A DNA stretch of 48,940 bases from Mayamaea pseudoterrestris (lineage: Eukaryota), in NCBI GenBank assembly GCA_027923505.1, contig BROI01000022.1, positions 620,001 through 668,940 on the forward strand, written 5' to 3'. The notes beneath the pieces are model-generated. The model searched no databases, was not told the origin of the DNA, and worked only from the letters and a program-made list of their open reading frames with translations. Both the position numbers and the translations under genes were made by a program. Positions 29,769-45,738 of this stretch are shown in pieces (position 1 is the first letter of the stretch; every line of letters starts with the position of its first letter).

Positions 29769-29883
29769 TAGTTGTGGGCATTCATTCATAACCACAGGCT
29801 TGTGTAGCAGACCCTAAGCAAGATAGAAAAACTACAGTAAAGCGCATCTATGACTGTGCATCGTGCAAGTGTATTCTGTAGAG

Positions 29884-30740
29884 TATGGACATTTGAAAAT
29901 TATGGCATCTGCTGGCTGAGACCGGTGAGAACTTCTCACCAGTCCCATTGCATTCTACCAAGGGACCAGCCAGGCAATCCATCTTGTAGTGCACATGATA
30001 AAAGAATGTTAACACCATTCTGGCTTAATTTGGGCCTACACATGGCTCAAGGTATGGGCTATTGAATATCACAGCCAGCTGCTGTCCACAGAGACACTAG
30101 CTTGTCATCTTGTTTTGTGGCGCATCTGAAATAAGGATGTATTGTGACAGCCATGACTCATTAAACCCCGCCACCCCACCCAAGGGAACAAGTATTGAAC
30201 TAGTTTGCTTCGGGTCCTCAACAGCACTGCTTGATTTGGGCAGTCCACATGCCTAGAGAGACACTAGCTTGTCATCTTGTTTTGTGGCGCATCTGAAATA
30301 TGGATGTTAGCACCATTCTGGCTTGATTTGGGCATACACATGGCTCAAGGTATGGGCATTTGAAAATTACGGCATCTGCTGGCTGAGACTGATGAGAACT
30401 CCTCACCAGTCACATTGCAGTCAACCAAGGGGCAAGCCAGGCAATCTTCCATGTAGCAGACCTGAAATAAGGATGTTAGCACCATTCTGGCTTGATTTGG
30501 GCATACACATGGCTCAAGGTTTGGACATTTGCCAGTCACATTGCCGTCCACTGAGGGACCAGCCAAGCAATCCATCTTGTAGCGCACCTGAAATACGGAT
30601 GTTAGCACCATTCTGGCTTGATTTGGGCATGCACATGGCTCAAGGTATGAGCGTCTGACAATCATGGCACCTGCTGCTTGAGACTGGTGACAAGTTGTCA
30701 CCAATCACACTCATTGCAGTCCATAGAGACACTAGCCTGT
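29884..30740 (-). repeat. Degenerate copies of the 169-bp satellite A in inverted orientation
   Basis: Reads as the reverse complement of A (ggcatctgc.ggctgagac.ggtga.aa.tt.tcacc; ccatcttgtag.gca..tgaa; gatgttagcaccattctgg), with indels and an exact 44-bp duplication at 30090 and 30257. Confidence 0.85.
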
Positions 30741-30743
30741 GTA

Positions 30744-31811
30744 TGTGCGGAGTCTCATGGCAGAGGGATGGGCTTCACACCCAAGGTGACAAGCCTTTGC
30801 ATATTAATCCCTTAGAAAATGTATTTTCTTTGTATTCCCAGAATTGGCAGGCCATTCTGGCAGTCTGAAGTGCCACTTGAGGTGCACTGCTAGTAGATCC
30901 AACAAGTTGATGGATCTGCCGAGTCTCACCATGACATACATGGTGGTGGAGACTGGAATGGGTGGGTGCAACTGACCCAAGCATTGGCCCATCATGACAC
31001 CAAACATGAATTGAAATGGATTGGGGGGCTCAACAGGCAACAATGATGGTTTGTGTAGCCAAAAAGGGTGCACGGCTGGCACATTCAATAAATGGTTGAA
31101 TGTGCGGAGTCTCATGGCAAAGGGATGGGTTTCACACCCAAGGTGACAAGCCTTTGCGTATTAATCCCTTAAAAAATGTATATTCTTTGTATTCCTGAAC
31201 TGGCAGGCCATTCTGGCAGTCTGGAGTGCCACTTGAGGTGGGCTGCTAGCAGATCCCACAAGGTGTTGGATCTGCTGAGTCTCACCATGACATACATGGT
31301 GGTGGAGACTGGAATGGGTGGGTGCAACTGACCCAAGCATTGGCCCATCATGACACCAAACATGAATTGAAATGGATTGGGGGGCTCAACAGGCAACAAT
31401 GATGGTTTGTGTAGCCAAAAAGGGTGCACGGCTGGCACATTCAATAAATGGTTGAATGTGCGGAGTCTCATGGCAAAGGGATGGGTTTCACACCCAAGGT
31501 GACAAGCCTTTGCGTATTAATCCCTTAAAAAATGTATATTCTTTGTATTCCTGAACTGGCAGGCCATTCTGGCAGTCTGGAGTGCCACTTGAGGTGGGCT
31601 GCTAGCAGATCCCACAAGGTGTTGGATCTGCTGAGTCTTACCATGTCATACATGGTGGTGGAGACTGGAATGGGTGGGTGCAACTGACCCAATCATTGGC
31701 CCATCATGACACCAAACATGAATGGAAATGGATTGGGGGGCTCAACAGGCATGAATGATGGTTGGTGTAGCCAAAAAGGGTGCATGGGTGGCACATTCAA
31801 CAATTGGTTAA
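30744..31811 (+). repeat. Satellite B (356-357 bp), ~3 copies
   Basis: tgtgcggagtctcatggca recurs at 30744, 31101 and 31457. Confidence 0.95.
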
Positions 31812-33430
31812 AGGCACCTACAGCAAGCCCTGTAGGTGCCCACATTACACCAGAATGGTGCCAACATCATTATTCAGGCTGCGCTACAACATGGTAGGCT
31901 TGGCAGGTGTCTCAGGGAATGGCAATGTATTTGGTGAAAACTTGCCACCAGTCTCAGCCCACAGATGCCATGACATTCAAACGCCCCTACAGCAAGCCCT
32001 GTAGGCGCCCACATTACACCAGAATGGTGCCAGCATCATTATACAGGCTGCGCTACAAGATGGTAGGCTTGGCGGGTGTCTCAGGGAATGGCAATGTATT
32101 TGGTGACAACTTGTCACCAGTCTCACCCCACAGATGTTGTGAGATTCAAACGCCCCTACAGCCAGCCCTGTAGGTGCCCCCATTACATAAAAATGGTGCC
32201 AACATCATTATACAGGCTGCGCTACAAGATGGTAGGCTTGGCGGGTGTCTCAGGGAATGGCAATGTATTTGGTGACAACTTGTCACCAGTCTCAGCCCTC
32301 AGATGCCGTGACATTCAAACGCCCCTACAGCCAGCCCTGTAGGTGCCCAAATTACACCGGAATGGTGCCAACCCTCATTATTCAGGCTGCGCTACAAGAT
32401 GGTAGGCTTGGCGGGTGTCTCAGGGAATGGCAATGTATTTGGTGACAACTTGTCACCAGTCTCAGCCCCCAGATGCCTTGACATTCAAACTCCCCAACAG
32501 CAAGCCCTGTTGGTGCCCCCATTACACCAGAATGGTGCCAACATCATTATTCAGGCTGCGCTACAAGATGGTAGGCTTGGTGGGTGTCTCAGGGAATGGC
32601 AATGTATTTGGTGACAAATTGTCACCAGTCTCAGCCCGCAGATGCCGTGACATTCAAACGCCCCTACAGCAAGCCCTGTAGGTGCCCAAATTACACCAGA
32701 ATGGTGCCAACATCATTATTCAGGCTGCGCTACAAGATGGTAGGCTTGGCGGGTGTCTCAGGGAATGGCAATGTATTTGGTGACAACTTGTCACCAGTCT
32801 CAGCCCGCAGATGCCGTGACATTCAAACGCCCCTACAGCAAGCCCTGTAGGTGCCCCCATTACACCAGAATGGTGCCAACATCATTATGCAGGCTGCGCT
32901 ACAAGATGGTAGGCTTGGTGGGTGTTTCAGGGAATGGCAATGTATTTGGTGACAACTTGTCACCAGTCTCAGCCCGCAGATGCCGTGACATTCAAACGCC
33001 CTTACAGCAAGCACTGTAGGTGCCCAGATTACTCCAGAATGGTGCCAACATCATTATTCAGGCTGCGCTACAAGATGGTAGGCTTGGCGGGTGTCTCAGG
33101 GAATGGCAATGTATTTGGTGACAACTTGTCACCAGTCTCAGCCCGCAGATGCCTTGACATTCAAACGCCCCAACAGCAAGTCCTGTAGGTGCCACCATTA
33201 CACCAGAATGGTGCCAACATCAGTATTCAGGCTGCGCTACAAGATGGTAGGCTTGGTGGGTGTCTCAGGGAATGGCAATGTATTTGGTGACAACTTGTCA
33301 CCAGTCTCAGCCCGCAGATGTTGTGACATTCAAACGCACCTACAGCAAGCCCTGTAGGTGCCCCCATTACACCAGAATGGTGCCAACATCATTTTTAAGG
33401 CTGCGCTACAAGTTGGTACCATTGGTGGGT
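31812..33430 (+). repeat. Satellite A (169 bp), ~9.5 copies
   Basis: tggtgacaacttgtcaccagtctcag recurs every 169 bp, and the ORF track repeats with the same period. Confidence 0.97.
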
Positions 33431-34237
33431 GTTTGGCAGGCCATTCTGGCAGTCTGAAGTGCCACTTGAGGTGCACTGCTAGTAGATTCAACAAGGTGTT
33501 GGATCTGCTGAGTCTCACCATGACATACATGGTGGTGGAGACTGGAATGGGTGGGTGCAACTGACCCAAGCATTGGCCCATCATGACACCAAACATGAAG
33601 TAAAATGGATTGAGGGGCTCAACAGGCAAAAATGATGGTTCGTGTGGCCAAAAAGGGTACATGGCTGGCACATTCAACTAATGGTTGAATGTGCTGAGTC
33701 TCATGGCAAAGGGATGGGTTTCACACCCAAGGTGACAAGCCTTTGCGTACTAATCACCTAAAAAACAAATGCTCTTTGTATTTCAGAATTGGCAGGCCAT
33801 TCTGGCAGTCTGAAGTGCCACTTGAGGTGCACTGCTAGTAGATTCAACAATTTGTTGAATCTGCCGAGTCTCACCATGACATACATGGTGGTGGAGACTG
33901 GAATGGGTGGGTGCAACCAACCCAAGCATTGGCAAATCATGACACCAAACATGAATTGAAATGGATTGAGGGGCTCATCAGGCAACAATGAAGGTTCGTG
34001 TAGCCAAAAAGGGTGCACGGCTGGCACATTCAACCAATGGTTGAATGTGCGGAGTCTCATGGCAAATGGATGGGTTTCACACCCAAGGTGACAAGCCTTT
34101 GCGCTCTTTTTACTTAAAAAATGTATTTTCTTTGTATTCCAGAACTGGCAGGCTATTCTGGCAGTCTGAAGTGCTACTTGAGGTGCGCTGCTAGCAGATC
34201 CAACAAGGTGTTGGATCTGCCGAGTCTCACCATGACA
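33431..34237 (+). repeat. Satellite B, second block (~2.3 copies; last monomer interrupted, resumes at ~42244)
   Basis: Same sequence as 30744-31811. It stops at ...gagtctcaccatgaca. Confidence 0.93.
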
Positions 34238-37200
34238 AATTGTTGAATGTGCTAGCAGTGAGCCATGCTTTAACTACAGGATCATCAGCTTTGCCTGCTA
34301 AGAAATCCAACCCCTTTCAGTTAATGTTTGTTGACATTTTGATCCAATGCTGGGGTGACCATCACCCCAATATCCACCAGCCTGGCTGCCATGGTGAGAC
34401 TCAGCAGATCCAATAACTTGTTGGATCTGCCAGCAGTGCACCTCAGCTGGTACACAGACCGCCAGGATGGCCTGCAGACCCAAGAATATCAAAACCAAAA
34501 TACATATGATACAATTGGACCAATAGCCATGTCAATTGTGGTGTGGAACGCAGCATTGTGCCATGAGACTGCGCACATTCAACAAGTTGTTGAATGTACT
34601 TGCAGTGCACCCTTTTTGGTTATAGGATCATCAGCCTTGCCTGCTAAGCCATCCAACCCCTTTCCACTGATGTTTGTTAACATTTGATCCAATGCTGGAG
34701 TGACTATCACCCCAATATCCACCAGCCTGGCTGCCATGGTGCGAGTCAGCAGATCCAATAAGTTGTTCGATCTGCCAGTGGTGCACCTCAGCAGGTACAC
34801 AGACAGCAGAATGGCTTGCAGACCAAAGAATATTAAAACCATATTACATATAATACAATTGGACCAATAGTCATGTCAATTGTGGTGTGGAACGCAGCAT
34901 TGTGCCATGAGACTGCGCACATTCAACAAGTTGTTGAATGTGCTAGCAGTGCACCCTTTTTGGCTATAGGATCATCAGCCTTGCCTGCTAAGCCATCCAA
35001 CCCCTTTCCACTAATGTTTGTTGACATTTTGATCCAATGCTGGGGTGACTATCACCCCAATATCCACCAGCCTGGCTGCCATGGTGAGACCCGGCAGATC
35101 CAATAACTTGTTGGATCTGCCAGCAGTGCACCTCAGCTGGTACACAGACCGCCAGGATGGCCTGCAGACCCAAGAATATCATAACCAAAATACATATGAT
35201 ACAATTGGACCAATAGCCATGTCAATTGTGGTGTGGAACGCAGCATTGTGCCATGAGACTGCGCACATTCAACAAGTTGTTGAATGTGCTAGCAGTGCAC
35301 CCTTTTTGGCTATAGGATCATCAGCCTTGCCTGCTAAGCCATCCAACCCCTTTCCACTAATGTTTGTTGACATTTTGATCCAATGCTGGGGTGACTATCA
35401 CCCCAATATCCACCAGCCTGGCTGCCATGGTGAGACTCGGCAGATCCAATAACTTGTTGGATCTGCCAGTGGTGCACCTCAGCTGGTACACAGACAGCCA
35501 GAATGGCCTGCAGACCCAAGAATATCAAAACCAAAATACATATGATACAATTGGACCAATAGTCATGTCAATTGTGGTGTGGAACGCAGCATTGTGCCAC
35601 GAGACTGCGCACATTCAACAAGTTGTTGAATGTGCTAGCAGTGCACCCTTTTTGGCTATAGGATCATCAGCCTTGCCTGCTAAGCCATCCAACCCCTTTC
35701 CACTAATGTTTGTTGACATTTTGATCCAATGCTGGGGTGACTATCACCCCAATATCCACCAGCCTGGCTGCCATGGTGAGACTCGGCAGATCCAATAACT
35801 TGTTGGATCTGCCAGCAGTGCACCTCAGCTGGTACACAGACCACCAGGATGGCCTGCAGACCCAAGAATATCAAAACCAAAATACATATGATACAATTGG
35901 ACCAATAGTCATGTCAATTGTGGTGTGGAACGCAGCATTGTGCCATGAGACTGCGCACATTCAACAAGTTGTTGAATGTGCTAGCAGTGAGCCATGCTTT
36001 AACTACAGGATCATCAGCCTTGCCTGCTAAGCCATCCAACCCCTTTCCACTAATGTTTGTTGACATTTTGAGCCAATGCTGGGGTGACTATCACCCCAAT
36101 ATCCACCAGCCTGGCTGCCATGGTAAGACTCGGCAGATCCAATAAGTTGTTGCATCTGCCAGCGGTGCACCTCAGCTGGTACACAGACAGCCAGAATGGC
36201 CTGCAGACCCAAGAATATCAAAACCAAAATACATATGATACAATTGGACCAATAGTCATGTCAATTGTGGTGTGGAACGCAGCATTGTGCCATGAGACTG
36301 CGCACATTCAACAAGTTGTTGAATGTGCTAGCAGTGCACCCTCTTTGGCTATAGGATCATCAGCCTTGCCTGCTAAGCCATCCAACCCCTTTCCACTAAT
36401 GTTTGTTGACATTTTGATCCAATGCTGGGGTGACTATCACCCCAATATCCACCAGCCTGGCTGCCATGGTGAGACCTGGCAGATCCAATAACTTGTTGGA
36501 TCTGCCAGCAGTGCACCTCAGCTGGTACACAGACAGCCAGAATGGCCTGCAGACCCAAGAATATCAAAACCAAAATACATATGATACAATTGGACCAATA
36601 GTCATGTCAATTGTGGTGTGGAACGCAGCATTGTGCCATGAGACTGCGCACATTCAACAAGTTGTTGAATGTGCTAGCAGTGCACCCTTTTGGCTATAGG
36701 ATCATCAGCCTTGCCTGCTAAGCCATCCAACCCCTTTCCACTAATGTTTGTTGACATTTTGAGCCAATGCTGGAGTGACTATCACCCCAATATCCACCAG
36801 CCTGGCTGCCATGGTGAGACTCGGCAGATCCAATAAGTTGTTGGATCTGCCAGTGGTGCACCTCAGCTGGTACACAGACAGCCAGAATGGCCTGCAGACC
36901 CAAGAATATCAAAACCAAAATACATATGATACAATTGGACCAATAGTCATGTCAATTGTGGTGTGGAACGCAGCATTGTGCCATGAGACTGCGCACATTC
37001 AACAAGTTGTTGAATGTGCTAGCAGTGCACCCTTTTTGGCTATAGGATCATCAGCCTTGCCTGCTAAGCCATCCAACCCCTTTCCACTAATGTTTGTTGA
37101 CATTTTGAGCCAATGCTGGGGTGACTATCACCCCAATATCCACCAGCCTGGCTGCCATGGTGAGACTCGGCAGATCCAATAAGTTGTTGGATCTGCCAGC

Positions 37201-40200
37201 GGTGCACCTCAGCTGGTACACAGACTGCCAGGATGGCCTGCAGACCCAAGAATATCAAAACCAAAATACATATGATACAATTGGACCAATAGTCATGTCA
37301 ATTGTGGTGTGGAACGCAGCATTGTGCCATGAGACTGCGCACATTCAACAAGTTGTTGAATGTGCTAGCAGTGCACCCTTTTGGCTATAGGATCATCAGC
37401 CTTGCCTGCTAAGCCATCCAACCCCTTTCCACTAATGTTTGTTGACATTTTGATCCAATGCTGGGGTGACTATCACCCCAATATCCACCAGCCTGGCTGC
37501 CATGGTGAGACTCGGCAGATCCAATAACTTGTTGGATCTGCCAGCAGTGCACCTCAGCTGGTACACAGACCGCCAGGATGGCCTGCAGACCCAAGAATAT
37601 CAAAACCAAAATACATATGATACAATTGGACCAATAGTCATGTCAATTGTGGTGTGGAACGCAGCATTGTGCCATGAGACTGCGCACATTCAACAAGTTG
37701 TTGAATGTGCTAGCAGTGCACCCTTTTTGGCTATAGGATCATCAGCCTTGCCTGCTAAGCCATCCAACCCCTTTCCACTAATGTTTGTTGACATTTTGAG
37801 CCAATGCTGGGGTGACTATCACCCCAATATCCACCAGCCTGGCTGCCATGGTGAGACCTGGCAGATCCAATAACTTGTTGGATCTGCCAGCAGTGCACCT
37901 CAGCTGGTACACAGACAGCCAGAATGGCCTGCAGACCCAAGAATATCAAAACCAAAATACATATGATACAATTGGACCAATAGTCATGTCAATTGTGGTG
38001 TGGAACGCAGCATTGTGCCATGAGACTGCGCACATTCAACAAGTTGTTGAATGTGCTAGCAGTGAGCCATGCTTTGGGCTATAGGATCATCAGTCTTGCC
38101 TGCTAAGCCATCCAACCCCTTTCCACTAATGTTGGTTGACATTTTGAGCCAATGCTGGAGTGACTATCACCCCAATATGCACCAGCCTGGCTGCCATGGT
38201 GAGACTCGGCAGATCCAATAAGTTGTTGGATCTGTCAGTGGTGCACCTCAGCTGGTACACAGACAGCTAGAATGGCCTGCAGACCAAAGAATATCAAAAC
38301 CAAAATACATATGATACAATTGGACCAAAAGTCACGTCAATAGTGGTGCGGAACGCAGCATTATGCCATGAGACTGCGCACATTCAACAAGTTGTTGAAT
38401 GTGCTAGCAGTGAGCCATGCTTTAACTACAGGATCATCAGCCTTGCCTGCTAAGCCATCCAACCTGTTTCCACTAATGTTTGTTGACATTTTGAGCCAAT
38501 GCTGGGGTGACTATCACCCCAATATCCACCAGCCTGGCTGCCATGGTGAGACCTGGCAGATCCAATAACTTGTTGGATCTGCCAGCAGTGCACCTCAGCT
38601 GGTACACAGACCACCAGGATGGCCTGCAGACCCAAGAATATCAAAACCAAAATACATATGATACAATTGGACCAATAGTCATGTCAAATTTGGTGTGGAA
38701 CGCAGCATTGTGCCACGAGACTGCGCACATTCAACAAGTTGTTGAATGTGCTAGCAGTGCACCCTTTTTGGCTATAGGATCATCAGCCTTGCCTGCTAAG
38801 CCATCCAACCCCTTTCCACTAATGTTTGTTGACATTTTGAGCCAATGCTGGGGTGACTATCACCCCAATATCCACCAGCCTGGCTGCCATGGTGAGACTC
38901 GGCAGATCCAATAAGTTGTTGGATCTGCCAGTGGTGCACCTCAGCTGGTACACAGACAGCCAGAATGGCCTGCAGACCCAAGAATATCAAAACCAAAATA
39001 CATATGATACAATTGGACCAATAGTCACGTCAATTGTGGCGTGGAACACAGCATTGTGCCATGAGACTGCGCACATTCAACAAGTTGTCGAATGTGCTAG
39101 CAGTGAACCATGCTTTGGGCTACAGGATCATCCGCCTTGCCTGCTAAGCCATCTAACCCCTTTCCACTAATGTTGGTTAATATTTTGATCCAATGCTGGG
39201 GTGACTAACACCCCAATATCCACCAGCCTGTCTGCCATGGTGAGACGTGCCATGAGACTGCGCACATTCAACAAGTTGTTGAATGTGCTAGCAGTGCACC
39301 CTCTTTGGCTATAGGATCATCAGCCTTGCCTGCTAAGCCATCCAACCCCTTTCCACTAATGTTTGTTGACATTTTGATCCAATGCTGGGGTGACTATCAC
39401 CCCAATATCCACCAGCCTGGCTGCCATGGTGAGACCTGGCAGATCCAATAACTTGTTGGATCTGCCAGCAGTGCACCTCAGCTGGTACACAGACAGCCAG
39501 AATGGCCTGCAGACCCAAGAATATCAAAACCAAAATACATATGATACAATTGGACCAATAGTCATGTCAATTGTGGTGTGGAACGCAGCATTGTGCCATG
39601 AGACTGCGCACATTCAACAAGTTGTTGAATGTGCTAGCAGTGCACCCTTTTGGCTATAGGATCATCAGCCTTGCCTGCTAAGCCATCCAACCCCTTTCCA
39701 CTAATGTTTGTTGACATTTTGAGCCAATGCTGGAGTGACTATCACCCCAATATCCACCAGCCTGGCTGCCATGGTGAGACTCGGCAGATCCAATAAGTTG
39801 TTGGATCTGCCAGTGGTGCACCTCAGCTGGTACACAGACAGCCAGAATGGCCTGCAGACCCAAGAATATCAAAACCAAAATACATATGATACAATTGGAC
39901 CAATAGTCATGTCAATTGTGGTGTGGAACGCAGCATTGTGCCATGAGACTGCGCACATTCAACAAGTTGTTGAATGTGCTAGCAGTGCACCCTTTTTGGC
40001 TATAGGATCATCAGCCTTGCCTGCTAAGCCATCCAACCCCTTTCCACTAATGTTTGTTGACATTTTGAGCCAATGCTGGGGTGACTATCACCCCAATATC
40101 CACCAGCCTGGCTGCCATGGTGAGACTCGGCAGATCCAATAAGTTGTTGGATCTGCCAGCGGTGCACCTCAGCTGGTACACAGACTGCCAGGATGGCCTG

Positions 40201-42241
40201 CAGACCCAAGAATATCAAAACCAAAATACATATGATACAATTGGACCAATAGTCATGTCAATTGTGGTGTGGAACGCAGCATTGTGCCATGAGACTGCGC
40301 ACATTCAACAAGTTGTTGAATGTGCTAGCAGTGCACCCTTTTGGCTATAGGATCATCAGCCTTGCCTGCTAAGCCATCCAACCCCTTTCCACTAATGTTT
40401 GTTGACATTTTGATCCAATGCTGGGGTGACTATCACCCCAATATCCACCAGCCTGGCTGCCATGGTGAGACTCGGCAGATCCAATAACTTGTTGGATCTG
40501 CCAGCAGTGCACCTCAGCTGGTACACAGACCGCCAGGATGGCCTGCAGACCCAAGAATATCAAAACCAAAATACATATGATACAATTGGACCAATAGTCA
40601 TGTCAATTGTGGTGTGGAACGCAGCATTGTGCCATGAGACTGCGCACATTCAACAAGTTGTTGAATGTGCTAGCAGTGCACCCTTTTTGGCTATAGGATC
40701 ATCAGCCTTGCCTGCTAAGCCATCCAACCCCTTTCCACTAATGTTTGTTGACATTTTGAGCCAATGCTGGGGTGACTATCACCCCAATATCCACCAGCCT
40801 GGCTGCCATGGTGAGACCTGGCAGATCCAATAACTTGTTGGATCTGCCAGCAGTGCACCTCAGCTGGTACACAGACAGCCAGAATGGCCTGCAGACCCAA
40901 GAATATCAAAACCAAAATACATATGATACAATTGGACCAATAGTCATGTCAATTGTGGTGTGGAACGCAGCATTGTGCCATGAGACTGCGCACATTCAAC
41001 AAGTTGTTGAATGTGCTAGCAGTGAGCCATGCTTTGGGCTATAGGATCATCAGTCTTGCCTGCTAAGCCATCCAACCCCTTTCCACTAATGTTGGTTGAC
41101 ATTTTGAGCCAATGCTGGAGTGACTATCACCCCAATATGCACCAGCCTGGCTGCCATGGTGAGACTCGGCAGATCCAATAAGTTGTTGGATCTGTCAGTG
41201 GTGCACCTCAGCTGGTACACAGACAGCTAGAATGGCCTGCAGACCAAAGAATATCAAAACCAAAATACATATGATACAATTGGACCAAAAGTCACGTCAA
41301 TAGTGGTGCGGAACGCAGCATTATGCCATGAGACTGCGCACATTCAACAAGTTGTTGAATGTGCTAGCAGTGAGCCATGCTTTAACTACAGGATCATCAG
41401 CCTTGCCTGCTAAGCCATCCAACCTGTTTCCACTAATGTTTGTTGACATTTTGAGCCAATGCTGGGGTGACTATCACCCCAATATCCACCAGCCTGGCTG
41501 CCATGGTGAGACCTGGCAGATCCAATAACTTGTTGGATCTGCCAGCAGTGCACCTCAGCTGGTACACAGACCACCAGGATGGCCTGCAGACCCAAGAATA
41601 TCAAAACCAAAATACATATGATACAATTGGACCAATAGTCATGTCAAATTTGGTGTGGAACGCAGCATTGTGCCACGAGACTGCGCACATTCAACAAGTT
41701 GTTGAATGTGCTAGCAGTGCACCCTTTTTGGCTATAGGATCATCAGCCTTGCCTGCTAAGCCATCCAACCCCTTTCCACTAATGTTTGTTGACATTTTGA
41801 GCCAATGCTGGGGTGACTATCACCCCAATATCCACCAGCCTGGCTGCCATGGTGAGACTCGGCAGATCCAATAAGTTGTTGGATCTGCCAGTGGTGCACC
41901 TCAGCTGGTACACAGACAGCCAGAATGGCCTGCAGACCCAAGAATATCAAAACCAAAATACATATGATACAATTGGACCAATAGTCACGTCAATTGTGGC
42001 GTGGAACACAGCATTGTGCCATGAGACTGCGCACATTCAACAAGTTGTCGAATGTGCTAGCAGTGAACCATGCTTTGGGCTACAGGATCATCCGCCTTGC
42101 CTGCTAAGCCATCTAACCCCTTTCCACTAATGTTGGTTAATATTTTGATCCAATGCTGGGGTGACTAACACCCCAATATCCACCAGCCTGGCTGCCATGG
42201 TGAGACCTGGCAGATCCAGATCCAATAAGTTGTTGGATCTT
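34238..42241 (-). repeat. Satellite C (345-347 bp), ~23 copies; diverged reverse complement of B
   Basis: 346-bp period. catggtgagactcggcagatccaataacttgttggatctgccagcagtgcacctc is the near reverse complement of the B segment gaggtgcactgctagtagatccaacaagttgatggatctgccgagtctcaccatg. Confidence 0.95.
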
Positions 42242-42419
42242 TTACATGGTGATTCAGACTGGAATGGGTGGGTGCAACTGACCCAAGCATTGGCCCATCA
42301 TGACACCAAACATGAATTGAAATGGATTGGGGGGCTCAACAGGCAACAATGATGGTTTGTGTGGCCAAAAAGGGTGCATGGCTGGCACATTCAACCATTG
42401 GTTAAAGGCATTGGTTAAA
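42242..42419 (+). repeat. Remainder of the interrupted B monomer plus the B-to-A junction
   Basis: tacatggtg...gactggaatgggtgggtgcaactg...gcacattcaaccattggttaaaggca, with a short cattggttaaagg duplication. Confidence 0.9.
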
Positions 42420-45400
42420 GGCACCTACAGCAAGCCCTGTAGGTGCCCCTATTACACCAGAATGATGCCAACATCATTATTCAGGCTGCGCTACAAGATG
42501 GTAGGCTTGGCGGGTGTCTCAGGGAATGGCAATGTATTTGGTGACAACTTGTCACCAGTCTCAGCCCGCAGATGCCGTGACATTCAAACGCCCCAACAGC
42601 AAGCCCTGTAGGTGCCCCCATTACACCAGAATGGTGCCAACATCATTATTCAGGCTGCGCTACAAGATGGTAGGCTTGGCGGGTGTCTCAGGGAATGGCA
42701 ATGTATTTGGTGACAACTTGTCACCAGTCTCAGCCCGCAGATGCCGTGACATTCAAACGCCCCTACAGCAAGCCCTGTAGGTGCCCAAATTACACCAGAA
42801 TGGTGCCAACATCATTATTCAGGCTGCGCTACAAGATGGTAGGCTTGGCGGGTGTCTCAGGGAATGGCAATGTATTTGGTGACAAGTTGTCACCAGTCTC
42901 AGCCCGCAGATGCCGTGACATTCAAACGCACCTACAGCAAGCCCTGTAGGTGCCCAAATTACACCAGAATGGTGCCAACATCATTATTCAGGCTGCGCTA
43001 CAAGATGGTAGGCTTGGCGGGTGTAACAGGGCATGGCAATGTATTTGGTGACAACTTGTCACCAGTCTCAGCCCGCAGATGCCGTGACATTCAAACGCCC
43101 CAACAGCAAGCCCTGTAGGTGCCCCCATTACACCAGAATGGTGCCAACATCATTATTCAGGCTGCGCTACAAGATGGTAGGCTTGGTGGGTGTCTCAGGG
43201 AATGGCAATGTATTTGGTGACAACTTGTCACCAGTCTCAGCCCGCAGATGCCGTGACATTCAAACGCACCTACAGCAAGCCCTGTAGGTGCCCAGATTAC
43301 ACCAGAATGGTGCCAACATCATTATTCAGGCTGCGCTACAAGATGGTAGGCTTGGCGGGTGTCTCAGGGAATGGCAATGTATTTGGTGACAACTTGTCAC
43401 CAGTCTCAGCCCGCAGATGCCGTGACATTCAAACGCCCCAACAGCAAGCCCTGTAGGTGCCCCCATTACACCAGAATGGTGCCAACATCATTATTCAGGC
43501 TGCGCTACAAGATGGCAGGCTTGGCGGGTGTCTCAGGGAATGGCAATGTATTTGGTGACAACTTGTCACCAGTCTCAGCCCGCAGATGCCATGACATTCA
43601 AATGCCCCAACAGCAAGCCCTGTAGATGCCCAGATTACTCCAGAATGGTGCCAACATCATTATTCAGGCTGCGCTACAAGATGGTAGGCTTGGCGGGTGT
43701 CTCAGGGAATGGCAATGTATTTGGTGACAACTTGTCACCAGTCTCAGCCCGCAGATGCCGTGACATTCAAACGCCCCAACAGCAAGCCCTGTAGGTGCCC
43801 AAATTACACCAGAATGGTGCCAACATCATTATTCAGGCTGCGCTACAAGATGGTAGGCTTGGTGGGTGTCTCAGGGAATGGCAATGTATTTGGTGACAAC
43901 TTGTCACCAGTCTCAGCCCGCAGATGCCGTGACATTCAAACGCACCTACAGCAAGCCCTGTAGGTGCCCAAATTACACCAGAATGGTGCCAACATCATTA
44001 TTCAGGCTGCGCTACAAGATGGTAGGCTTGGCGGGTGTCTCAGGGAATGGCAATGTATTTGGTGACAACTTGTCACCAGTCTCAGCCCGCAGATGCTGTG
44101 ACATTCAAACGCCCTAACAGCAAGCCCTGTAGGTGCCCCCATTACACCAGAATGGTGCCAACATCATGTCTCAGGGAAAGGCAATGTATTTGGTGACAAC
44201 TTGTCACCAGTCTCAGCCCGCAGATGCCATGACATTCAAACGCACCTACAGCAAGCCCTGTAGGTGACCAAATTACACCAGAATGGTGCCAACATCATTA
44301 TTCCGGCTGCGCTACAAGATGGTAGGCTTGGCGGGTGTCTCAGGGAATGGCAATGTATTTGGTGACAACTTGTCACCAGTCTCAGCCCGCAGATGCCGTG
44401 ACATTCAAACGCCCCAACAGCAAGCCCTGTAGGTGCCCCCATTACACCAGAATGGTGCCAACATCATTATTCAGGCTGCGCTACAAGATGGTAGGCTTGG
44501 CGGGTGTCTCAGGGAATGGCAATGTATTTGGTGACAACTTGTCACCAGTCTCAGCCCGCAGATGCCGTGACATTCAAACGCACCTACAGCAAGCCCTGTA
44601 GGTGCCCAGATTACTCCAGAATGGTGCCAACATCATTATTCAGGCTGCGCTACAAGATGGCAGGCTTGGCGGGTGTCTCAGGGAATGGCAATGTATTTGG
44701 TGACAACTTGTCACCAGTCTCAGCCCGCAGATGCCGTGACATTCAAATGCCCCAACAGCAAGCCCTGTAGATGCCCAGATTACTCCAGAATGGTGCCAAC
44801 ATCATTATTCAGGCTGCGCTACAAGATGGTAGGCTTGGCGGGTGTCTCAGGGAATGGCAATGTATTTGGTGACAACTTGTCACCAGTCTCAGCCCGCAGA
44901 TGCCGTGACATTCAAACGCCCCTACAGCAAGCCCTGTAGGTGCCCAAATTACACCAGAATGGTGCCAACATCATTATTCAGGCTGCGCTACAAGATGGTA
45001 GGCTTGGCGGGTGTCTCAGGGAATGGCAATGTATTTGGTGACAACTTGTCACCAGTCTCAGCCCGCAGATGCCGTGACATTCAAACGCCCCAACAGCAAG
45101 CCCTGTAGGTGCCCCCATTACACCAGAATGGTGCCAACATCATTATTCAGGCTGCGCTACAAGATGGTAGGCTTGGCGGGTGTCTCAGGGAATGGCAATG
45201 TATTTGGTGACAACTTGTCACCAGTCTCAGCCCGCAGATGCCGTGACATTCAAACGCCCCTACAGCAAGCCCTGTAGGTGCCCAAATCACACCAGAAATG
45301 GTGCCAATTTCATTATTCAGGCTGCGCTACAAGATGGTAGGCTTGGCGGGTGTCTCAGGAAATGGCGATGTATTTGGTGACAACTTGTCACCAGTCTCAG

Positions 45401-45738
45401 CCCGCAGATGCCGTGACATTCAAACGCCCCAACAGCAAGCCCTGTAGGTGCCCAGATTACTCCAGAATGGTGCCAACATCATTATTCAGGCTGCGCTACA
45501 AGATGGTAGGCTTGGCGGGTGTCTCAGGGAATGGCAATGTATTTGGTGACAACTTGTCACCAGTCTCAGCCCGCAGATGCCGTGACATTCAAACGCCCCA
45601 ACAGCAAGCCCTGTAGGTGCCCCCATTACACCAGAATGGTGCCAACATCATTATTCAGGCTGCGCTACAAGATGGTAGCAATGGTGGGTGTCTCAGGGAA
45701 TGGCAATGTATTTGGTGACAAGTTGTCACCAGTCTCAG
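42420..45738 (+). repeat. Satellite A (169 bp), ~20 copies, one with a 38-bp deletion near 44167
   Basis: 169-bp period. The array ends abruptly after the hairpin + gtctcag at 45738. Confidence 0.97.

Follow-up and report, generated by a model that had tools for sequence, protein, structure and literature searches.

A satellite array inserted in reverse orientation into a single monomer of another satellite, with its ends in short palindromes, in the diatom Mayamaea pseudoterrestris

We analyzed a 48,940-nucleotide window of the Mayamaea pseudoterrestris genome (assembly GCA_027923505.1, contig BROI01000022.1, positions 620,001 to 668,940 of the forward strand), which contains a composite satellite locus where an array of one satellite family, termed C, interrupts a monomer of another, termed B. 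All coordinates are those of the window, and a slash marks the point at which a sequence is cut or joined. As laid out by Tandem Repeats Finder (TRF) and BLAST, the locus spans ~16 kb (~29.9-45.7 kb of the window) and is flanked by ordinary genes. A Pfam scan covered 13 of the 25 open reading frames (ORFs) of at least 150 amino acids in the window and returned P-type ATPase, DUF819, ABC1 kinase, amino-acid kinase, EF-hand, DnaJ, TLDc and GHMP kinase domains; no transposase and no Rep/helicase was found by Pfam in these 13 of 25 ORFs. For ribozymes, hammerhead or other, no Rfam match was obtained on either strand of 29800-36400, a stretch that includes units of A, B and C, and a reading of the locus as a self-cleaving-ribozyme satellite or retrozyme was thereby ruled out. 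The features considered below are as follows, with the arrays taken from TRF and BLAST and the right part of the split monomer from BLAST.

29892-30704: A-like copies, diverged and inverted
30740-31809: first B block (356-bp units)
31556-31814, forward strand: sister (paralogous) partial B monomer and the B-to-A junction that follows it, GGTTAAAGG/CACCTACAG (92% identity)
Up to 33432: A satellite (169-bp units)
33433-34237, forward strand: left part of the B array (356-bp units)
34145-34237, forward strand: left 93 bases of the split B monomer, the last unit of the left B array
34228-34237, forward strand: left arm and three loop bases, CACCATG-ACA, of the B palindrome P_B2
34238-42240, forward strand: C array (346-bp units, ~23 copies)
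34238-34252, forward strand: right half of the C palindrome P_C1, AATTGTTGAATGTGC
36287-39246, forward strand: copy 1 of a 2,960-bp tandem duplication in C
39247-42206, forward strand: copy 2 of the same duplication
42218-42240, forward strand: last C hairpin, complete, AGATCCAATAAGTTGTTGGATCT
42241-42242, forward strand: TT filler, belonging to neither B nor C
42243-42406, forward strand: right part of the split B monomer (positions 94-257), starting TACATGGTG
42396-42421: 13-bp unit CATTGGTTAAAGG, present twice
42427-45738: right A satellite

The C block is a reverse-orientation insertion into one B monomer. A single 356-bp monomer stops at 34237 (...GAGTCTCACCATGACA; ...CACCATGACA) and resumes at 42243, so that, in the phase of B, the split falls at position 93/94, with zero bases of B lost and zero target duplication; a BLAST search with the B monomer places B 2-93 on 34146-34237 and B 94-257 on 42243-42406. 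The uninterrupted sequence, CACCATGACATACATGGTG, is present in 4 of the 5 other B copies of the window, the remaining copy carrying two substitutions. If two unrelated array boundaries were involved, such exact continuity of phase would be expected by chance only about once in 356 cases. Being exact and free of loss, the interruption points to foreign DNA having been taken in when a clean break was repaired. The sister partial B monomer at 31556-31809 is uninterrupted at position 93/94 and is 92% identical to the rejoined split monomer, and the B-to-A junction is common to both; judged by these alignments, the copy at 31556-31814 can serve as an empty site within the window. A sequence-only reading of the window, made by a model before this analysis, had described the C array as an inverted insertion into a single B monomer, and the base-for-base continuity of B, together with the uninterrupted sister copy, confirms that description. 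It had also placed the stop of B at 34237, as we do, and the resumption at ~42244, which is here moved by one base to 42243.

The surroundings of the split monomer show some further regularities. A B-then-A block at 30844-33432 is matched by a second one, composed of 33433-34237 and 42243 to ~44050, with each copy holding 2.72 B monomers, and the pair looks like an old tandem duplication of ~2.6 kb. The B copies of the two blocks differ by 7-12%, and the second block has in addition the 13-bp tandem duplication at 42396-42421.

The insert occupies 34238-42242 (8,005 bp), of which 8,003 bp, up to 42240, are C-derived and the remainder is the TT filler. At the left joint, the end of B and the start of C have a 3-nt microhomology, ACA, in common, while the right joint shows no microhomology and has the 2-base filler instead. 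The left arm of the last C hairpin contains a 6-bp tandem duplication of CAGATC (42211-42222) that is found in the last C copy only. Three clustered substitutions at 42252, 42254 and 42255 (GGTGG to ATTCA), 10-13 bases into B from the right joint, fall in what was the extended stem of the broken B palindrome, and these may be a scar of repair synthesis or reflect decay once the palindrome was lost.

All three sequence ends created by the insertion are associated with palindromes. B is broken inside the 5-nt loop of its own palindrome, CACCATG-ACATA-CATGGTG (P_B2), at ACA/TA; this palindrome is B-specific, has a folding energy of -9.1 kcal/mol and is intact in all but one of the 5 other B copies. 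C starts with the right half of a 27-nt palindrome, GCACATTCAACAA-G-TTGTTGAATGTGC (P_C1), at 1-4 nt from its center, a range that reflects the ACA microhomology, and the C-derived sequence finishes at the 3' base of its last hairpin. The two hairpins at the ends of the C array are homologous to one another. That C begins at one hairpin and ends at the end of another, with a small CAGATC duplication, had been noticed from the letters alone and holds at the positions given above for the P_C1 half, the last hairpin and the duplication. As single-stranded DNA, the hairpins fold at -8.3 to -13.5 kcal/mol, and 0-1 of 200 shuffles fold as well. Palindromes, defined as having arms of at least 6 and a loop of at most 8, account for 20% of the B, 22.5% of the C and 24% of the A monomer, and the 3 of 3 insertion ends that lie within them correspond to p ~0.010.

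We also mapped the other rearrangement endpoints of the locus, by eye, onto the palindromes of the consensus sequences. Where different families are joined, 6 of 9 endpoints lie in palindromes (binomial p = 0.005, with the grouping made post hoc). For B, these are the start at 30740-30744, the end at 31809 and the break; for A, the start at 31813-31815; and for C, both the start and the end. Outside palindromes lie the two sides of the A/B joint at 33432/33433 and, at the first junction, the A-like side.

Several results weigh against hairpins as the cause of the insertion and should be considered when referring to these probabilities. None of the 5 endpoints that lie within a family or at an array end falls in a palindrome (both ends of the 2,960-bp duplication, both ends of a 38-bp A deletion at 44167, and the A end at 45738), and when all endpoints of the locus are pooled, 6 of 14 are palindromic (p = 0.066). 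There is just one insertion event to judge from, and roughly a fifth of every monomer is palindromic. The palindromes are short, with arms of 7-13 bp, and arms of this length are not expected to extrude from duplex DNA. One simple rule of breakage at the center of symmetry does not fit, because C terminates on the right at the 3' foot of a hairpin stem and not at the hairpin center; breakage at the center is seen for B, in the loop, and, within 1-4 nt, for the left end of C. In addition, a topoisomerase II cut has a 4-base stagger, and B carries neither the 4-bp duplication nor the loss expected from it. The link between hairpins and insertion is thus suggestive, not proven. Of the earlier proposal that hairpins act as break points, the association stands and extends to the break of B in the loop of its own palindrome, while causation is only suggested.

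Apart from the palindromes, the motif GTCTCA (GAGAC on the other strand) lies within 2 nt of 4 of the 8 non-palindromic endpoints, where ~0.84 would be expected (Poisson p ~0.011, for a motif chosen post hoc). The sites concerned are 33432/33433, 39246/39247, 44167 and 45738, with, as examples, the end of the C duplication (GAGAC/), an A end (GGGTGT/), the A deletion (/GTCTCAG) and the end of the A array (GTCTCAG/). A metagenome scan with the C palindrome gave 0 matches, and one with the palindrome shared by B and C gave a single locus, L001, which matches solely over the 23-24-base palindrome and is probably a chance match.

C is ~72% identical to the reverse complement of B (BLAST identity 67-75%), and this homology extends over the whole length, with an alignment score of 378 as compared to a shuffle maximum of 32. 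C is therefore an old family separate from B and not a fresh inversion of it, and the term inverted is literally apt, the two being long-established sister families in a head-to-head arrangement. Each monomer of B, like each monomer of C, contains two copies of a 55-nt module (GGTGCAC..hairpin..GAGTCTCA..ATGG), and a shorter look-alike is present in A. Beyond this short motif, A was dropped as a relative of B and C, with local alignment scores of 16-20 that are within the shuffle range. Edge monomers of C were considered as B-like intermediates and rejected, being no closer to B (70.5-72.5%) than full interior monomers are (71.4-74.7%).

Contigs from public runs give some indication of how common such sequences are. 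In run X1, the word depth of C-like contigs sums to 1e4-9e4, as compared to 105-260 for single joint contigs, from which we infer that genome-wide copies of C far exceed the 23 found here. This depth, taken together with the 25-33% divergence of C from B, also suggests that C originated elsewhere. The A satellite (42427-42700) has a summed contig word depth ~100-400 times that of C in runs X1, X5, X2 and X3, and ~20-190 times that of the bins holding B in all four runs, and is by far the most abundant family. Runs X2 and X3 are labelled as other organisms and contain A, B and some C at low depth. At 39480 (C position 209), contigs of X5, X2 and X3 depart from C into sequence nearer to the reverse complement of B, suggesting that another part of the genome holds a third subfamily, intermediate between B and C.

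Part of the C array was generated where it now lies. The two copies of the 2,960-bp tandem duplication differ by 1 mismatch in 2,960, and their joint at 39246/39247 is out of register (8 monomers + 192 bp) and without microhomology. Because this duplication is nearly perfect, at least 37% of the C array was made in place, and recently. Identity to the C consensus is 93.6-93.7% for the first two monomers and 88.5% for the last half-monomer, while 10 of the 12 full interior monomers are at 96.8-99.1%, a pattern that weakly supports growth in place. It is, however, just mildly informative, because the interior monomers m12 and m13 (~94%) are equally diverged. The sequence-only reading had left open whether the array came in as one unit or was enlarged in place; for 2,960 of the 8,003 bp of C, growth in place is demonstrated, and the ends of the array, which run from position 3 to position 192, do not have the footprint of an inserted circle. 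As a further feature of the array, an alternative 20-nt block follows the first C hairpin (GTGAGCCATGCTTTAAC... in place of GTGCACCCTTTTTGGC...) in monomers 1, 6 and 13, and partially in 12 and 15, which hints at an older higher-order period of ~5-6 monomers.

Taken together, we favor, at about even chances, a break in the B hairpin loop, followed by end joining that captured C DNA and then by growth in place. A double-strand break would have arisen in the loop of the hairpin-forming palindrome of one B monomer, and end joining would have repaired it while taking in, in reverse orientation, C-type satellite from elsewhere in the genome. The captured piece would have been bounded by two palindromes of its own, at the center of one and at the 3' base of the other. 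The left joint would have formed through the 3-base ACA microhomology, and the right joint with the TT filler and a slip that duplicated CAGATC ~20 bases inside. The C block would then have grown where it sits, by the 2,960-bp tandem duplication and, presumably, by earlier unequal exchange. What the sequence shows directly is the anatomy of the insertion, the reverse-orientation homology of the two families, the sister copy without an insert and the local duplication; that hairpins caused the breaks, that the repair was by end joining and that C came from another locus is inferred from these features. The whole looks like ordinary break repair and not like a new mobile system.

The same footprint could also result from copying, which we regard as a possible but unlikely route. 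Here, the 3' end of a broken or stalled B would anneal through ACA to the exposed loop of a C hairpin belonging to a different locus and copy C, until the new strand completed a snap-back hairpin, ended synthesis and joined the other B end, as in synthesis-dependent strand annealing, microhomology-mediated break-induced replication (MMBIR) or a polymerase-theta template switch. Template-switch pathways have been discussed for satellite junctions in the part of the literature drawn on here (PMC7403614). Copying needs only one break to explain all three hairpin positions, and fits the ACA microhomology, the TT filler, the CAGATC slip and the clustered substitutions at 42252-42255, which resemble sloppy repair synthesis. 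However, a return to exactly the next B base is atypical of MMBIR, and templated insertions of the template-switch kind are usually tens to hundreds of bases long. As copying leaves the same footprint as the capture of a fragment, this footprint cannot separate the two.

Less probable is that C arrived as a circular extrachromosomal molecule (eccDNA) that was linearized by one cut in a hairpin and went back into the genome whole, a route that the earlier reading had named as an example and to which we assign a low probability. Satellite sequences are frequent on eccDNA, and its re-insertion has been put forward for nesting of this type (PMC7403614, in the portion used here). According to that source, the footprint of a re-inserted circle is that the truncated first and last monomers add up to one whole monomer. 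The first B block of the present locus shows this whole-monomer footprint (PMC7403614): it is 1,070 bp, or 3.00 monomers, its truncated first and last copies form one whole monomer, and it begins and finishes at the same spot, B position 254 (+/-3 nt), inside the palindrome P_B3. The C block, in contrast, does not show it, as its first and last copies overlap by ~190 bp. Even when a half-monomer phase is considered, an overlap of ~12 nt remains in which the sequences differ (GAATGT versus GGATCT), and two separate breaks are needed.

The structure of the joints is taken from the assembly alone, and one should consider the misplacement of the C block, or at least of the 2,960-bp duplicate, as an assembly artefact, which we judge to be very unlikely. 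The region is a long tandem repeat, and its duplicate copies differ at only 1 of 2,960 bases. Contigs of the four public runs, which are short-read (~100 nt), were placed on 38735-42700 and, among those listed, none bridges 39246/39247 or 42242/42243, an outcome that leaves room for an artefact but is neutral for the joints themselves. Nonetheless, misassembly is unlikely because it would take two chimeric joins, independent of each other, at adjacent bases of the same B monomer. Between B and C, moreover, there is no same-strand similarity able to mislead an overlap, and the out-of-register duplication joint is unlike an error of collapse or expansion. In run X1 only, four joints on opposite strands connect C to B or A, with one contig each. 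These probably derive from additional B-type copies, matched to C because of the shared 55-nt module, and were not used as evidence.

Still lower, and in our view highly improbable, ranks the C block as the cargo of a non-autonomous Helitron-like element (rolling-circle, with an HUH nuclease). In the part of Li et al. 2024 used here (PMC11417382), HLE1 elements are described by a 5' TC, a 3' hairpin followed by CTRR, an A/T target and no target duplication, and HLE2 elements (Helitron2/Helentron) by 12-16-nt terminal inverted repeats and a T/T target. The C block resembles these (PMC11417382) in the lack of target duplication, in a site between A and T (ACA/TAC, with a chance of ~1 in 16 for A/T) and in a hairpin that adjoins the 3' end, at 2 nt from it. 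It is unlike them in that neither strand has a 5' TC or a 3' CTRR (the ends are AATTG... and ...GGATCTTT and, on the reverse strand, AAAGATCC... and ...CAACAATT), in that the termini, compared by eye, have no 12-16-nt inverted repeats, and in that the cargo is solely satellite. The host site ACATAC has no TT and, therefore, offers no T/T target. No Rep/helicase is found in the scanned ORFs, although a non-autonomous element would not need one. A rolling-circle product had been named in the earlier reading as a possible source of the array, and nothing supports it: Helitron termini are missing, and the 13 scanned ORFs include no Rep.

That C arose at this locus, by an inversion of B at its own palindromes followed by divergence, would agree with the homology of C to the reverse complement of B and with the two shared hairpin modules, which are nearly alike on both strands, but is close to untenable, as C and B differ by 25-33% with units of 346 versus 356 bp while the divergence among flanking B copies is only 7-12%, C-like contigs occur abundantly in two studies, and B would not have stayed continuous across the block.

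As to what the insertion means, the finding is real, of an ordinary mechanism and of moderate interest, being one tidy event with p near 0.01. If capture at palindromes were a genome-wide rule, composite satellite loci would be built by breakage and rejoining at short conserved palindromes, and such a rule, if true, would offer a mechanical reason for the conservation of the palindromes. A more far-reaching idea, which we consider improbable, is that the conserved 55-nt module of hairpin plus GAGTCTCA is the recognition or cutting site of a structure-specific enzyme, with topoisomerase II, a hairpin nuclease and an HUH-type nickase as candidates. In such a case, satellites would be cut, exchanged and re-inserted module by module at their hairpins, as a semi-autonomous site-specific shuffling system and not as passive repeats.

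Comparison with known systems places the favored reading, end-joining capture at a break in a hairpin loop, among several related processes. In plants, T-DNA integration is an example of polymerase-theta end joining that takes up extrachromosomal DNA where a chromosome is broken. The present insertion is similar in that no target was duplicated and that one joint has microhomology and the other filler, and differs in that the incoming DNA is a satellite of the genome itself.

With regard to the hairpins, the part of Szlachta et al. 2020 considered here (PMC7337936) describes hairpin-forming DNA as prone to breakage and topoisomerase II as cleaving hairpins, including the loops of alpha-satellite hairpins. 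In vitro, the enzyme is reported to cut such hairpins either within the loop or 1 nt away from the 3' stem foot (PMC7337936), and the breaks found here, two in loops and one at a 3' stem foot, are alike. They differ in that the 4-base stagger expected of the enzyme left no trace in B, and the classical fragile palindromes are much longer than those found here.

The closest case is that of Sproul et al. 2020 (PMC7403614), in which, in the parts of the paper drawn upon, the Rsp-like satellite is inserted in the X-chromosomal 1.688 arrays of Drosophila simulans and D. mauritiana, with eccDNA and template switching proposed as sources. The present insertion belongs to this known kind, namely one satellite inserted into another by break repair (PMC7403614). 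Both cases have one satellite nested in the array of another, euchromatic in the Drosophila case, with the host monomer cut at a defined base, short microhomology at one joint, a second joint that is more irregular, and later growth by unequal exchange, presumed in the present case (PMC7403614). In the Drosophila case, as described in these parts of the paper, the families are unrelated, the same junction is found at many loci and hairpins play no part, whereas here the families are homologous and inverted, a single locus is seen, no host base is lost and all ends are in palindromes. A limited literature search did not find diatom satellite DNA as a main subject. Nested satellites, and the idea that hairpin-forming DNA breaks easily, are already known, and what is added here is a diatom case at base resolution, in which the target and both ends of the cargo are in palindromes and the target loses no base.

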